From Escherichia coli (GTDB lineage: Bacteria > Pseudomonadota > Gammaproteobacteria > Enterobacterales > Enterobacteriaceae), in the NCBI RefSeq assembly GCF_013122565.1, contig NZ_CP053258.1: DNA of 64,000 bases, one strand, 5' to 3'. Both the position numbers and the translations under genes were made by a program. Every line of letters begins with the position of its first letter. Position 1 is the stretch's first letter. Under the pieces are notes generated by a model that saw nothing but the letters and a program-made list of their open reading frames with translations, made no database searches and was not told where the DNA came from. Shown in pieces: positions 40 through 3,655 of the stretch.

Positions 40-140
<101 letters not shown>

Positions 141-164: not shown

Positions 165-950
165 GTGGTTCTTATGTCCGAAACAAAAAACGAACTTGAA
201 GACCTGCTGGAAAAAGCAGCAACCGAACCGGCTCACCGCCCGGCCTTTTTCCGTACTCTACTGGAATCCACCGTCTGGGTGCCGGGTACGGCGGCGCAGG
301 GCGAGGCAGTAGTTGAAGATAGCGCGCTTGATTTACAGCACTGGGAAAAAGAAGATGGCACCAGCGTCATTCCTTTTTTTACCTCGTTAGAAGCACTTCA
401 ACAGGCGGTTGAAGACGAACAGGCATTTGTCGTAATGCCCGTTCGCACATTGTTTGAGATGACCCTTGGTGAAACGCTCTTCCTTAATGCCAAACTGCCA
501 ACCGGTAAAGAGTTTATGCCGCGTGAAATCAGTTTGTTGATTGGTGAAGAAGGGAGTCCGCTGAGTAGTCAGGAAGTACTGGAAGGCGGTGAATCGCTGA
601 TATTATCGGAAGTCGCAGAGCCGCCAGCACAAATGATTGATTCACTCACCACCTTATTTAAAACCATTAAGCCAGTGAAGCGTGCTTTTATTTGTTCAAT
701 TAAAGAGAACGAAGAGGCACAGCCTAATTTACTTATTGGCATTGAAGCCGATGGTGATATCGAAGAAATTATTCAGGCGGCGGGAAGTGTAGCGACCGAT
801 ACATTACCTGGCGATGAACCAATCGATATTTGTCAGGTGAAAAAAGGGGAAAAAGGAATTAGCCACTTTATTACCGAACATATTGCGCCATTCTATGAAC
901 GTCGCTGGGGTGGTTTTTTGCGTGACTTTAAACAGAATCGGATAATCTAA
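165..950 (+). CDS. sseB: SseB (enhanced serine sensitivity protein)
   Basis: ORF track 261 aa; track start is GTG at 165, an in-frame ATG at 174 (MSETKNE..., 258 aa) is the more likely start; position next to sseA as in E. coli. Confidence 0.9.
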   Translation: MVLMSETKNELEDLLEKAATEPAHRPAFFRTLLESTVWVPGTAAQGEAVVEDSALDLQHWEKEDGTSVIPFFTSLEALQQAVEDEQAFVVMPVRTLFEMTLGETLFLNAKLPTGKEFMPREISLLIGEEGSPLSSQEVLEGGESLILSEVAEPPAQMIDSLTTLFKTIKPVKRAFICSIKENEEAQPNLLIGIEADGDIEEIIQAAGSVATDTLPGDEPIDICQVKKGEKGISHFITEHIAPFYERRWGGFLRDFKQNRII

Positions 951-990
951 AATATGCCGCCCTAAAGGGCGGCATTCTGGCTTACCTGCT
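951..990. terminator. Hairpin directly after sseB stop; T-run is on the - strand side, so likely terminator of ryfA copy 1 and weak terminator for sseB
   Basis: aaaatatgccgccctaaagggcggcat: GC stem with flanking A-run on + and T-run on -; repeated at about 1627-1660 and 2309-2340. Confidence 0.5.
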
Positions 991-1252
991 GTTCTGAAGG
1001 TTGTTAACCACCAGTAAATTGTCGCCGGAGAGACTCCGGTTATTATTTACCTCGGTTAACAGCGCACCAGAAACAATAAGTACGATACAGAAGCACCGTA
1101 TCTTCATTGTGCGGTCCATGCGAAGACCGCATCACGACAGCACCACTGGCGATATTGCCGCGATAGCAAGCGCTGAGACGCGCTTGCTCTAAAGGTCGCG
1201 GAACATCCTTTCCTTAAGCCAGCGCCCGCTTGCGAGACGGCGGAAAGGGCCG
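955..1252 (-). ncRNA. ryfA: ryfA-like transcript copy 1 (mRNA-like RNA carrying a small ORF)
   Basis: Conserved TATTAT -10 candidate on - strand at about 1259-1264; hairpin terminator at about 951-990; ~300 nt, matching the recalled ~304-nt ryfA between sseA and sseB in K-12. Confidence 0.5.
982..1119 (-). CDS. Small hydrophobic protein, 45 aa (MDRTMKIRCFCIVLIVSGALLTEVNNNRSLSGDNLLVVNNLQNSR); candidate TimP-like type I toxin
   Basis: Hand translation of - strand; hydrophobic N-terminal segment; ORF conserved in all three units with synonymous changes; too short for the ORF track. Confidence 0.45.
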   Translation of the reverse strand: MDRTMKIRCFCIVLIVSGALLTEVNNNRSLSGDNLLVVNNLQNSR

Positions 1253-1295
1253 CAGTGGATAATACACTAACAGAACAATAATAACTCTCTTTTGC

Positions 1296-1324
1296 TTGAC
1301 AAAAAGAGAGTTACTGGCGAGTAT
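1296..1324 (+). promoter_or_regulatory. Candidate sigma70 promoter for + strand small RNA, copy 1 (TTGACA-17-GAGTAT)
   Basis: Perfect -35 TTGACA, 17-nt spacer, GAGTAT; same architecture in all three units although the spacer sequence differs in unit 3. Confidence 0.4.
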
Positions 1325-1330
1325 TGTCTC

Positions 1331-1428
1331 CGCTGAGACGCGCTTGCATTACTACGGTAATACAACCTGCTGGAAAGGCCGCGAACCAAACCGGCAACAA
1401 ATAGCCGCCTGATTTTGGCGGTTTTTTG
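1331..1428 (+). ncRNA. Candidate ~100-nt antisense-type sRNA, copy 1 (TimR/RyfB-like antitoxin RNA)
   Basis: Predicted start just after the promoter; 5' 17 nt cgctgagacgcgcttgc identical to 1171-1187 in the ryfA leader; ends at hairpin plus T-run at about 1405-1428. Confidence 0.4.
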
Positions 1429-1430
1429 TT
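1405..1430 (+). terminator. Intrinsic terminator of candidate sRNA copy 1
   Basis: ccgcctgattttggcgg hairpin followed by TTTTTTG. Confidence 0.55.
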
Positions 1431-1550
1431 GTTTAAAGAAAGTGAAATTACACGTTTAAGTAATATCTTTTATTGGTTAGTATTTTTAATATTAAGCGAA
1501 AATTGTTTATATTTGTCTGAATTCGGACTAATAAGTCAGGTTATTTTAAT

Positions 1551-1628
1551 ATCGAACATATTGCGCCATTCTATGAATGTCGCTGGGGTGGGCTTTTGCG
1601 TGACTTTAAACAGAATCGGATAATCTAA
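1551..1628 (+). pseudogene. Duplicated 3'-terminal fragment of sseB (last ~23 codons plus stop)
   Basis: Near-identical to 873-950, encodes ...HIAPFYECRWGGLLRDFKQNRII*; no start or upstream coding sequence. Confidence 0.6.
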
Positions 1629-1629
1629 A

Positions 1630-1930
1630 ATATGCCGCCCCAAAGGGCGGCATTCGGGCTTACTTGCTGCTCTGACGGTTGTTAACCACCAGTAAATTGT
1701 CGCCGGAGAGACTCCGGTTATTATTTACCTCGGTTAACAGCGCACCAGAAACAATAAGTACGATACAGAAGCACCGTATCTTCATTGTGCGGTCCATGCG
1801 AAGACCGCATCACGACAGCACCACTGGCGATATTGCCGCGATAGCAAGCGCTGTGAAACACCTGCATTTACGGCCACGGAACATCCTTTCCTAAAGCCAG
1901 CGCCCGTTTGCGAGACGGCGGAAAGGGCCG
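1630..1930 (-). ncRNA. ryfA: ryfA-like transcript copy 2
   Basis: Same architecture as copy 1; TATTAT on - strand at about 1937-1942, hairpin terminator at about 1627-1660. Confidence 0.45.
1660..1797 (-). CDS. Small hydrophobic protein, 45 aa, copy 2 (C-terminus ...VVNNRQSSK)
   Basis: Same frame and start as copy 1; differences confined to the last residues. Confidence 0.45.
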   Translation of the reverse strand: MDRTMKIRCFCIVLIVSGALLTEVNNNRSLSGDNLLVVNNRQSSK

Positions 1931-1973
1931 GTGTCGATAATACGCTAAATAAACAATAATTACTCTCTTTTGC

Positions 1974-2002
1974 TTGACAAAAAGAGAGTTGCTGGCGAAT
2001 AT
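1974..2002 (+). promoter_or_regulatory. Candidate promoter for + strand sRNA, copy 2 (TTGACA-17-GAATAT)
   Basis: Same spacing as copy 1. Confidence 0.4.
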
Positions 2003-2008
2003 TGCTCT

Positions 2009-2110
2009 GCTGTGAAGCACCTGCGTTGCTCATGCAACACAAGTCAATCTGCTGGAGAGGCCGCGAACCAAACCGGCAACAAATAACCGCCTGATCTTGG
2101 CGGTTTTTTG
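2009..2110 (+). ncRNA. Candidate antisense-type sRNA, copy 2
   Basis: 5' region gctgtgaagcacctgcgtt matches 1849-1868 with two A-to-G differences that would give G-U pairs; hairpin plus T-run terminator at about 2085-2110. Confidence 0.4.
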
Positions 2111-2230
2111 TTGCTTAAAGAAAGTGAATTTACATGTTTAAGTAATATCTTTTACCGGTTAGTATTTTTAATATTGAGCGGGATTTGTTTATATTTGTCT
2201 GAATTCGGACTAATAAGCCAGGTCATTTTA

Positions 2231-2310
2231 ATATCGAACATATTGCGCCATTCTATGAACGTCGCTGGGGTGGTTTTTTGCGTGACTTTAAACAGAATCG
2301 GATAATCTAA
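2231..2310 (+). pseudogene. Second duplicated 3'-terminal fragment of sseB
   Basis: Identical in sequence class to 873-950 and 1551-1628. Confidence 0.6.
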
Positions 2311-2311
2311 A

Positions 2312-2612
2312 ATATGCCGCCCCAAAGGGCGGCATTCGGGCTTACCTGCTGTTCTGAAGGTTGTTAACCACCAATAAATTGTTGCCGGAGAGACTCCGGT
2401 TATTATTTACCTCAGTTAACAGCGCACCAGAAACAATAAGTACGATACAGAAGCACCGTATCTTCATTGTGCGGTCCATGCGAAGACCGCATCACGACAG
2501 CACCACTGGCGATATTGCCGCGATAGCAAGCACTGTGGGGTGCCTGTATTTACGGTCATGGAACATCCTTTCCTAAAGCCAGTGCCCGTTTGCGAGACGG
2601 CGAAAAGGGCCG
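2312..2612 (-). ncRNA. ryfA: ryfA-like transcript copy 3
   Basis: TATTAT on - strand at about 2619-2624; hairpin terminator at about 2309-2340. Confidence 0.45.
2342..2479 (-). CDS. Small hydrophobic protein, 45 aa, copy 3 (D33N plus two synonymous changes relative to copy 1)
   Basis: ACC to ACT and CTG to TTG silent substitutions preserve the reading frame. Confidence 0.45.
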   Translation of the reverse strand: MDRTMKIRCFCIVLIVSGALLTEVNNNRSLSGNNLLVVNNLQNSR

Positions 2613-2658
2613 TTAAGAATAATACTCTCATGTTTGAATAATTACTCTGTTTATTATC

Positions 2659-2687
2659 TTGACATGGCCAGGCATAAAAGAGAGTAT
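2659..2687 (+). promoter_or_regulatory. Candidate promoter for + strand sRNA, copy 3 (TTGACA-17-GAGTAT)
   Basis: Hexamers and 17-nt spacing kept although spacer and upstream palindrome have diverged. Confidence 0.4.
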
Positions 2688-2692
2688 TTCAA

Positions 2693-2795
2693 CACTGTGG
2701 GGTGCCTGCGTTGCTCCGGCAACACAAGCCAACCTGCTGGAAAGGCCGCGAACCAGACCAGCAATAAAAAACCGCCAAATTCGGCGGTTTTTTAT
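2693..2795 (+). ncRNA. Candidate antisense-type sRNA, copy 3
   Basis: 5' cactgtggggtgcctg identical to 2531-2546 in the ryfA-3 leader; ends at terminator 2768-2797. Confidence 0.4.
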
Positions 2796-2800
2796 TGCCT
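2766..2800. terminator. Bidirectional intrinsic terminator between sRNA copy 3 (+) and sseA (-)
   Basis: caataaaaaaccgccaaattcggcggttttttattg: GC stem flanked by A-run and T-run. Confidence 0.6.
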
Positions 2801-2809
2801 GTAAAAAGC

Positions 2810-3655
2810 TTATTTCACTGGCTCAACCGGTAAATCTGCCCGCGCGCCCCATTCACTCCATGCGCCGTCGTACAGTTTCACGTTTGGCACATCCAGCGTC
2901 GCGAGTGCCAACAAAACCACGGCTGCTGTTACACCAGAGCCGCAGCTGACGATAATCGGTTTGTCATAGCTGACGCCGCGACCAAAAAATATCGCATCCA
3001 GTTCATCGGTCGTTTTTAGTTCGCCTTCGCGCACCAGTTCCGTCCACGGAACGTTCAATGCACCGGGAATATGTCCGCGACGTAAACCTGGGCGAGGTTC
3101 ATCAACTTCTGCGTTAAAACGTGCAGCCGGGCGGGCATCAACAATTTGCGCCGTATTTTCATGGCTTGCCAATAATACATCGGTTACTTTCACCACGGCT
3201 TCAGGATTAAACGCGGCGTTAAACTCTCCTTCCGGCAGCTCTACTGCACCTTCTTCTAACAACAGATCATCGCGCTGCCAGCCTGCAAGTCCACCCCCCA
3301 GAATCGACACTTTCTCTACACCAAAGGTGCGCAGCATCCACCATGCTCGTGGGGCTGAGAAAAGATTACCTTCGTCATAGACAATCAGGTGCTTATCCTG
3401 GTTAACGCCTAATTCACGCATTGCCACGGCGAACGTTTCCGGGCGCGGCAGCATGTGCGGAAGCGGGGAAGTGTGATCAGAAAGCGCTTCGATATCAAAA
3501 AACACTGCGCCGGGAATATGTCCATTCAGATACTCCTGAGCAACGTTACGATCTTCCTGTCCAGGCGACGCCATGCGGGCATCGATAATCTGAATTTCCG
3601 GGTCATCAATATGTTCGGCGAGCCAGTCGGCTCCTACAAACCATGTCGTGGACAT
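2810..3655 (-). CDS. sseA: 3-mercaptopyruvate sulfurtransferase (rhodanese family)
   Basis: 281 aa from ATG at 3655 (MSTTWFVGADWLAEH...); track ORF extends further upstream; active-site CGSGVTA. Confidence 0.93.
   Translation of the reverse strand: MSTTWFVGADWLAEHIDDPEIQIIDARMASPGQEDRNVAQEYLNGHIPGAVFFDIEALSDHTSPLPHMLPRPETFAVAMRELGVNQDKHLIVYDEGNLFSAPRAWWMLRTFGVEKVSILGGGLAGWQRDDLLLEEGAVELPEGEFNAAFNPEAVVKVTDVLLASHENTAQIVDARPAARFNAEVDEPRPGLRRGHIPGALNVPWTELVREGELKTTDELDAIFFGRGVSYDKPIIVSCGSGVTAAVVLLALATLDVPNVKLYDGAWSEWGARADLPVEPVK

Follow-up and report, generated by a model that had tools for sequence, protein, structure and literature searches.

Background

The enterobacterial RNA ryfA was long taken for a non-coding small RNA (sRNA), until Andresen et al. 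found that in Salmonella it encodes TimP, a protein of 38 amino acids (aa) (PMC7667032). The Salmonella protein is translated and inserted into the membrane; over-expressed, it is toxic and makes the membrane leak, and it is repressed by a divergently encoded sRNA, TimR (PMC7667032), whose repression of timP translation has been shown in Salmonella (PMC7667032, PMC11228461). Here a stretch of Escherichia coli DNA (64,000 nucleotides (nt) of contig NZ_CP053258.1, assembly GCF_013122565.1; termed here the window) is compared with these and other described systems, and is found very probably to carry three tandem copies of this type I toxin-antitoxin module, timP/timR, between the genes sseB and sseA. 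Published work covers the gene family together with the RNA, the antitoxin and the translation switch, and the gene is already known and annotated, so that this finding is correct but not new. Its value as a check is that a reading of the raw sequence correctly picked out a small toxin gene that had gone unannotated for about twenty years; its added value is comparative, in that it draws attention to a rare three-module array whose units have diverged in their toxin-antitoxin recognition sequences only.

The Salmonella timP mRNA is activated by refolding, not by processing: a pseudoknot between stem-loops 1 and 3 (SL1-SL3), together with the pairing of the so-called sites 2 and 4 (2-4 pairing), releases the Shine-Dalgarno sequence from SL4 (PMC11228461, PMC13000454), and binding of TimR to SL2 stops this switch (PMC11228461, PMC13000454). 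In pathogenic E. coli, RyfA also has regulatory phenotypes that are independent of its open reading frame (ORF) (PMC8205139). The sequence-only reading from which the present analysis started had described a hydrophobic ORF of 45 codons on the minus strand of each of three repeated units and had proposed that it encodes a small membrane toxin of the TimP kind.

Three ryfA units between sseB and sseA

The RNA is identified by the Rfam family ryfA (RF00126, threshold 80 bits), which is matched over its full length on the minus strand of every unit: by copy 1 at 949..1253 (314.0 bits, model positions 1-296 of 296), by copy 2 at 1627..1931 (316.0 bits) and by copy 3 at 2309..2613 (324.1 bits). According to their recognition sequences, which are described below, these copies are termed type alpha, type beta (the K-12 type) and type gamma, respectively. 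Inside each match the timP ORF sits at a conserved position, starting at nt 147 of the RNA. The peptide is identified by the NCBIfam profile NF040796 (toxic_TimP, small toxic inner membrane protein; curated cut-off 45 bits), which all three copies match with E = 7e-24 over profile positions 1-39 or 1-40 of 40. The corresponding coding sequences (CDSs), each of 41 codons plus stop and each with its translation checked, lie on the minus strand at 982..1107 (timP-1, 83.8 bits), 1660..1785 (timP-2, 83.8 bits) and 2342..2467 (timP-3, 83.7 bits). The proposal of a TimP-like membrane toxin is thereby upheld and, given a profile score of about 84 bits together with a full-length ryfA, can be made more specific: the gene is the E. 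coli orthologue of timP. The 41-aa sequences of all three copies occur verbatim in public databases as TimP (that of timP-3 as WP_250880416.1); a search for contigs encoding the unit-3 peptide found no record. Each peptide consists of a short basic N-terminus (MKIR), a hydrophobic core of 13 residues and a polar tail; in a composition-level test, the mean Kyte-Doolittle value is +2.86 over the 13 residues that follow MKIR and -0.82 over the next 24.

The ORF listing bears out the 45-aa minus-strand ATG ORFs at 982-1119, 1660-1797 and 2342-2479, along with the sequences quoted for them, and the reported differences among them hold codon by codon: units 1 and 3 are distinguished by a silent change at T22 (ACC>ACT), by D33N and by a silent change at L36 (CTG>TTG), and units 1 and 2 only by three C-terminal changes, L41R, N43S and R45K. 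Chance alone yields many ORFs this small (the first 5 kb contain 56 with 30 aa or more), and the three timP ORFs, being copies within one tandem triplication, constitute one observation rather than three; it is by homology to the NCBIfam profile, therefore, and not by its presence in triplicate, that the timP ORF stands above chance.

The repeat unit of this triplication is about 680 bp long and encodes two RNAs: the ryfA RNA of about 305 nt (that is, the timP mRNA) on the minus strand and, divergently on the plus strand, a TimR-like sRNA of about 100 nt. Each unit also repeats the 76-nt 3' end of sseB, in copies starting at 875, 1553 and 2235, and these copies place one end of the duplicated segment inside sseB. 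An exact-motif search located the two duplicated sseB 3' ends on the plus strand at 1553..1628 (76 nt including the stop codon, marking a repeat-unit boundary) and at 2235..2310. RefSeq labels the equivalent of such a duplicated end as a partial sseB pseudogene, and the 76-nt copies account for the partial sseB pseudogenes in that annotation. Units were delimited by alignment; Tandem Repeats Finder gave nothing, the unit being longer than its 500-bp period limit.

The elements that control translation in the published system are intact in all three copies. The SL4 hairpin (-13.5 kcal/mol) holds both the Shine-Dalgarno sequence UGGA and the first AUG, and the two pseudoknot strands, C(G/A)CUGGC at nt 30-36 and GCCAGUG at nt 104-110 of the RNA, form seven pairs, one of which changes from G-U to A-U in unit 3; the positions of these strands fit the published G33/C34 and G102/C103 once a 2-nt offset is allowed for (PMC13000454).

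A short segment of the RNA, nt 55-61 (minus strand, approximately 1193-1199, 1871-1877 and 2553-2559), varies among the units, reading GCGACCU, GUGGCCG and AUGACCG. On a tentative reading, it probably corresponds to 'site 2' of the published timP switch; given these differences, the balance between inactive and active conformations of the mRNA might differ between copies.

The start of timP

Comparison across genera was based on 24 ryfA copies from Escherichia, Citrobacter, Superficieibacter, Yersinia, Rahnella and Erwinia. Homologues were sought by scanning genome contigs with the SL4 pattern GCGGTCNNNGCANNGACCGCAC, which proved too loose: it returned at least 120 loci, mostly chance matches in GC-rich genomes, of which 15 enterobacterial loci were usable. 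The cross-genus sample is accordingly small, biased toward conserved SL4 and devoid of Salmonella.

The length of 45 codons given by the sequence-only reading stands for the longest ATG-initiated ORF, but the second ATG, which is codon 5 of that ORF and yields a product of 41 aa, is most likely where the conserved, annotated CDS begins. The second ATG (...GACCGCACAAUG) is present in 24 of 24 ryfA copies from the six genera, whereas the first is replaced by AAG in five species (Y. similis, three Rahnella species and Erwinia). Position 1 of the NF040796 profile falls on residue 5 of the 45-aa ORF, and the RefSeq timP CDS at the E. coli locus, 126 nt long, likewise begins at the second ATG. When numbered from MKIR, moreover, the Citrobacter homologue matches the published positions Leu18, Ala20 and Asp21 (PMC7667032), and the Salmonella timP ORF begins at +145 (PMC7667032).

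A protein of 45 aa initiated at the first ATG (MDRTMKIR...), as in the earlier reading and in one study of uropathogenic E. coli (UPEC), appears quite improbable. That ATG is in frame and is present in Escherichia, Citrobacter, Superficieibacter and most Yersinia, and a 45-aa product has been described for strain CFT073 (PMC8205139); yet, besides being absent from the five species just mentioned, it has no Shine-Dalgarno sequence upstream, lies within SL4 and overlaps the very UGGA that serves the second ATG. Nor was the 45-aa sequence found in a collection of 15 billion proteins, in which 41-aa forms were found; and the NCBIfam profile, the RefSeq CDS and the Salmonella ORF (PMC7667032) all speak for the later start. 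The first ATG was rejected as the likely start on the cross-genus comparison.

Evidence that timP is a coding gene

Across the six genera, every one of the 24 copies has an open timP frame, 38-42 codons long, the other frames carrying stops. In this small sample, which was gathered by way of a conserved SL4 pattern, the ratio of non-synonymous to synonymous substitution rates (dN/dS) lies at 0.08-0.15 for comparisons among Yersinia and Rahnella copies, both inside each genus and across the two; for E. coli against other genera it is 0.36-0.77. That timP is coding is thus supported by retention of the frame across genera, by the Yersinia and Rahnella dN/dS values and by the published experiments.

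The same frame comparison bears on the plus-strand ORFs of 63-71 aa that lie over the same DNA (1001-1192, 1679-1894 and 2361-2576), which the sequence-only reading had judged probably spurious. These ORFs are longer than the minus-strand ORF and recur in every unit, so that one might instead suppose them to be the real genes and the minus-strand ORF to be their antisense shadow. The probability of this is practically negligible: they begin with TTG, match no family (the best score being 12 bits against a cut-off of 280), are left unannotated by RefSeq in homologous loci, and run at their C-termini into the hypervariable SL2 patch, where they vary between units; no antisense frame is consistently open across genera, unlike the timP frame; and they are antisense to an experimentally established transcript. 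They were rejected as genes for want of a family match and of frame conservation across genera, in agreement with the earlier judgement.

Several observations weigh against the view that the window encodes working toxin genes. Toxicity, membrane localization and peptide production have been demonstrated in neither E. coli nor Shigella (PMC5333039, PMC8205139, PMC13188913), and avian pathogenic E. coli (APEC) is little affected by deletion of timR (PMC13188913). Nei-Gojobori dN/dS values within Escherichia, based on very few substitutions, are 0.9-1.3, and the three window copies differ by two synonymous and four non-synonymous changes, which is about the neutral expectation. The silent substitutions that had been offered as a sign of coding constraint are accordingly a weak argument; a dN/dS comparison bears constraint out in Yersinia and Rahnella. 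Local sequence data, then, do not demonstrate selection on the TimP protein, and its strong conservation could partly reflect RNA structure.

An alternative is that E. coli RyfA is mainly or only a base-pairing regulatory sRNA (acting in stress resistance, fimbriae, motility and virulence), that its ORF is silent or vestigial and kept by RNA structure, and that the copies are sibling sRNAs for which the TimR-like RNAs serve as sponges or partners. Consistent with this, ryfA alleles in which the ORF is disrupted still complement all tested UPEC ryfA phenotypes (PMC8205139); the peptide was not detected in Shigella or APEC (PMC5333039, PMC13188913); the APEC ryfA phenotypes depend on the presence of timR, suggesting an RNA-RNA interplay (PMC13188913); dN/dS is about 1 within Escherichia; and SL2 to SL4 of the 5' untranslated region (5'UTR) are 100% identical between units, as against 95-98% for the CDS. 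RNA structure alone, however, does not predict that an ORF be kept at 38-42 codons across six heavily diverged genera, nor the dN/dS values, 0.08-0.15, of Yersinia and Rahnella; in Salmonella the orthologue is translated, membrane-inserted and toxic (PMC7667032); and SL4 and the pseudoknot, which are translation-control elements, are intact in the three copies. The two roles, moreover, are not exclusive, as RyfA may be a dual-function RNA. Taken as a replacement for a toxin-encoding timP, a purely regulatory RyfA is considered unlikely.

Predicted TimR-like antitoxins and their recognition specificity

Returning to the window as an array of timP/timR modules, a conserved TimR body motif occurs once per unit, and each unit has a predicted TimR-like sRNA on the plus strand: TimR-1 at 1332..1427 (about 96 nt; TTGACA at 1296, an 18-nt spacer and AGTATT; intrinsic terminator at 1403-1427), TimR-2 at 2010..2109 (about 100 nt; TTGACA at 1974, an 18-nt spacer and AATATT, with a promoter scan score of 10/12; terminator at 2085-2109) and TimR-3 at 2695..2793 (about 99 nt; TTGACA at 2659, an 18-nt spacer and AGTATT; with a terminator that converges on the end of sseA). 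This arrangement agrees with that published for TimR and for RyfB (PMC7667032, PMC5333039).

The 5' end of each TimR-like RNA is complementary to the loop side of SL2 of the adjacent ryfA, with 16-17 contiguous base pairs in the cognate pairs. The predicted target sites, all on the minus strand, are 1171..1187 in ryfA-1 (GCAAGCGCGUCUCAGCG; 17 contiguous Watson-Crick pairs with TimR-1), 1850..1866 in ryfA-2 (contiguous pairing with TimR-2 that includes G-U pairs) and 2531..2546 in ryfA-3 (16 contiguous Watson-Crick pairs with TimR-3). Duplex energies were computed with RNAduplex for the SL2 region against the TimR 5' end (longer partners, of 145 versus 45 nt, gave inflated and uninformative energies). 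For ryfA copy 1 the energy is -37.3 kcal/mol with its own TimR and -20.3 and -21.1 kcal/mol with the other two; for copy 2 the values are -36.5 as against -26.0 and -26.2 kcal/mol; and for copy 3 they are -37.4 as against -13.5 and -15.5 kcal/mol.

Between units, the identity of ryfA is 95-100% everywhere but in one variable patch. Inter-unit identity is 100% from the 3' side of SL2 to SL4 and 95-98% over the timP CDS; it falls to 57-71% in the variable patch of SL2 and to 57-74% at the TimR 5' end. It is thus mainly the recognition module that has diverged, in both its halves (the SL2 loop side and the antitoxin 5' end), and these halves co-vary. From three different, co-varying SL2/TimR recognition sequences it is predicted that each antitoxin mainly controls its own toxin mRNA. 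Counting against strict specificity are the facts that the TimR transcript ends, promoters and orthogonality are themselves predictions and that ryfA-2 could, at a modelled -26 kcal/mol, also be moderately bound by TimR-1 and TimR-3. In Shigella, control by RyfB1 is sibling-specific, in that it lowers the RNA of RyfA1 and not of RyfA2 (PMC5333039).

A proposed mechanism

For the window alleles, membrane targeting, toxicity, the structural switch and TimR repression are inferred from the Salmonella work, and the following steps are proposed by homology with that system. TimP would insert into the inner membrane by way of an uncleaved, Sec-type signal-like segment and, when over-produced, would render the membrane leaky. 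By default its translation would be blocked, the ribosome-binding site UGGA being locked in SL4. Translation would then require a structural switch in which the SL1-SL3 pseudoknot and a long-range pairing open SL4; pairing of the TimR 5' end with the loop side of SL2 would prevent this switch.

Distribution and evolution of the array

Of 5,426 complete E. coli genomes, 5,425 carry ryfA, with a total of 5,589 copies and at most three per genome; the spacer that lies between units is found in 2,241 genomes and occurs twice in only 6. Taken together, these counts imply roughly 6 three-unit and 150 two-unit arrays, figures that were deduced from the totals rather than enumerated. A three-unit array is therefore rare, at about 6 of 5,426 complete genomes, or approximately 0.1%. 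RefSeq annotates timP at the E. coli locus and, in a few genomes such as that of strain MEW, annotates three timP genes with intervening partial sseB pseudogenes. As far as literature searches show, the array of three recognition alleles has been annotated but not analysed; a search for a triple ryfA/timP array found no paper, which is a weak negative inasmuch as human TIMP genes swamped the results.

The three recognition types also exist as single-copy alleles: in the same 5,426 genomes, type alpha is found in approximately 2,987, type beta in approximately 1,974 and type gamma in approximately 547 (as counted by BLAST with 56-nt queries in bands of at least 95% identity; the counts are approximate, cross-type alignments having 82-84% identity). 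In the three-unit genomes that were inspected, the order from sseB to sseA is alpha-beta-gamma. Within the toxin half of the RNA (ryfA nt 85-305), on the other hand, copies do not cluster by recognition type. In strain 14EC033 both paralogues share a private substitution at ryfA nt 217 (R to L), and at nt 164 all three window copies have C where all three MEW copies have T. Though the numbers are small, this pattern suggests gene conversion between paralogues within genomes, alongside divergent recognition modules.

A broader evolutionary picture may be proposed, tentatively and with somewhat less than an even chance of being right. The array would gather in one chromosome all three of the recognition alleles that segregate at the E. 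coli locus, forming three functionally orthogonal pairs; recognition modules would diversify by compensatory change while the toxin and switch parts are homogenized by gene conversion; and expansion and contraction of arrays would leave behind orphan or mismatched antitoxins, as in K-12. If this is true, then the three-allele array constitutes a natural system in which to study the evolution of RNA-RNA specificity in type I modules.

The sseA-sseB intergenic region of the K-12-like strain 3FA (locus 985-1830, compared with window 877-2815) contains one intact ryfA, with a beta-type SL2. The TimR adjoining it is alpha-type; a matching beta-type TimR lies farther off, beside sseA, behind the promoter and first 17 nt or so of a deleted second ryfA. 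The K-12-type locus thus has the appearance of a two-unit array that has collapsed and left ryfA next to a mismatched TimR. Since an alpha-type TimR stands beside a beta-type ryfA, deleting the 'adjacent timR' in such strains may remove a non-cognate antitoxin. Both the array and the K-12-type mismatch bear on the design and interpretation of "timR" deletion experiments in E. coli.

Flanking and intervening sequences

The array is flanked by sseB (174..950, plus strand), which is convergent with ryfA-1 and whose end has in common with that RNA a terminator hairpin at 954-975, and by sseA (2810..3655, minus strand), next to which lies yfhM. Over 9.2 kb of flanking sequence, identity to many E. 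coli chromosomes is 98.4%, which places the window in the E. coli/Shigella lineage. An AT-rich inter-unit spacer at 1431..1552 lies within a match to IS128 (RF00125), an Rfam family that goes back to a candidate sRNA of an early screen in E. coli. IS128 matches, scoring 203-261 bits, occur in the window at 1385-1595 (minus strand, 203 bits) and 2067-2277 (minus strand), and in strain 3FA at locus positions 1160-1368; the stretch matched comprises the inter-unit spacer, the reverse complement of the TimR terminator and the start of the duplicated sseB fragment. What the IS128 family model describes thus seems to be a remnant of the ryfA array and not an independent RNA gene. Upstream of sseB, at 11-139, are palindromic repeats resembling repetitive extragenic palindromic (REP) elements, an ordinary intergenic REP sequence; Rfam matches there to naRNA4 (40 bits) and ES036 (29 bits) both lie under the respective gathering scores.

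Comparison with known systems

The closest described system is TimP/TimR (ryfA/STnc2070) of Salmonella enterica serovar Typhimurium, which belongs to the same RNA family (RF00126) and the same protein family (NF040796) (PMC7667032, PMC11228461, PMC13000454). It resembles the window in that the antitoxin sRNA, divergent and non-overlapping, pairs through its 5' end with SL2 of the 5'UTR, that SL4 sequesters the Shine-Dalgarno sequence, and that the SL1-SL3 pseudoknot strands are present; the distance of the timP ORF from the RNA 5' end is also alike (nt 147 in the window, +145 in Salmonella). The Salmonella protein has 38 aa whereas the E. coli peptide of the window has 41, with a different polar C-terminal half. 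Salmonella, moreover, has one module as opposed to three in tandem; and toxicity and translation are established for Salmonella, whereas the window alleles are known from sequence.

Shigella dysenteriae, with RyfA1/RyfA2 and RyfB1/RyfB2, carries tandem ryfA siblings at the same chromosomal position (PMC5333039), each having a divergent transcript of about 100 nt ahead of it (PMC5333039); as with the window units, what distinguishes these siblings is a short 'variable region' overlapping the site at which RyfB pairs (PMC5333039). There are two copies in S. dysenteriae, as against three, with three recognition types, in the window, and the Shigella study dealt with RyfA as a non-coding sRNA and did not detect the peptide (PMC5333039). 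The same architecture as in the window is found in E. coli MEW (NZ_CM192120.1): sseB, three timP plus TimR-like units with partial sseB sequences between them, and sseA, in the order alpha-beta-gamma. Identity between MEW and the window is 93-96% across the array and 98.4% in the flanks; the lower value within the array implies that the window harbours a different allele of the same rare configuration.

More generally, tisB/istR-1, shoB/ohsC, zorO/orzO and dinQ/agrB are likewise type I modules with a divergently encoded antitoxin that pairs in trans (PMC7667032). Shared with these are a hydrophobic toxin of less than 60 aa, a structured mRNA with a sequestered ribosome-binding site, and short complementarity to the antitoxin. 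In the multi-copy families ibs/sib and ldr/rdl, paralogous copies discriminate their own antitoxin. What sets timP apart is, first, that its mRNA is activated by refolding, not by nuclease processing (PMC7667032, PMC13000454), and, second, that TimP has a Sec-type signal-like N-terminus in place of a plain transmembrane helix (PMC7667032, PMC13000454).

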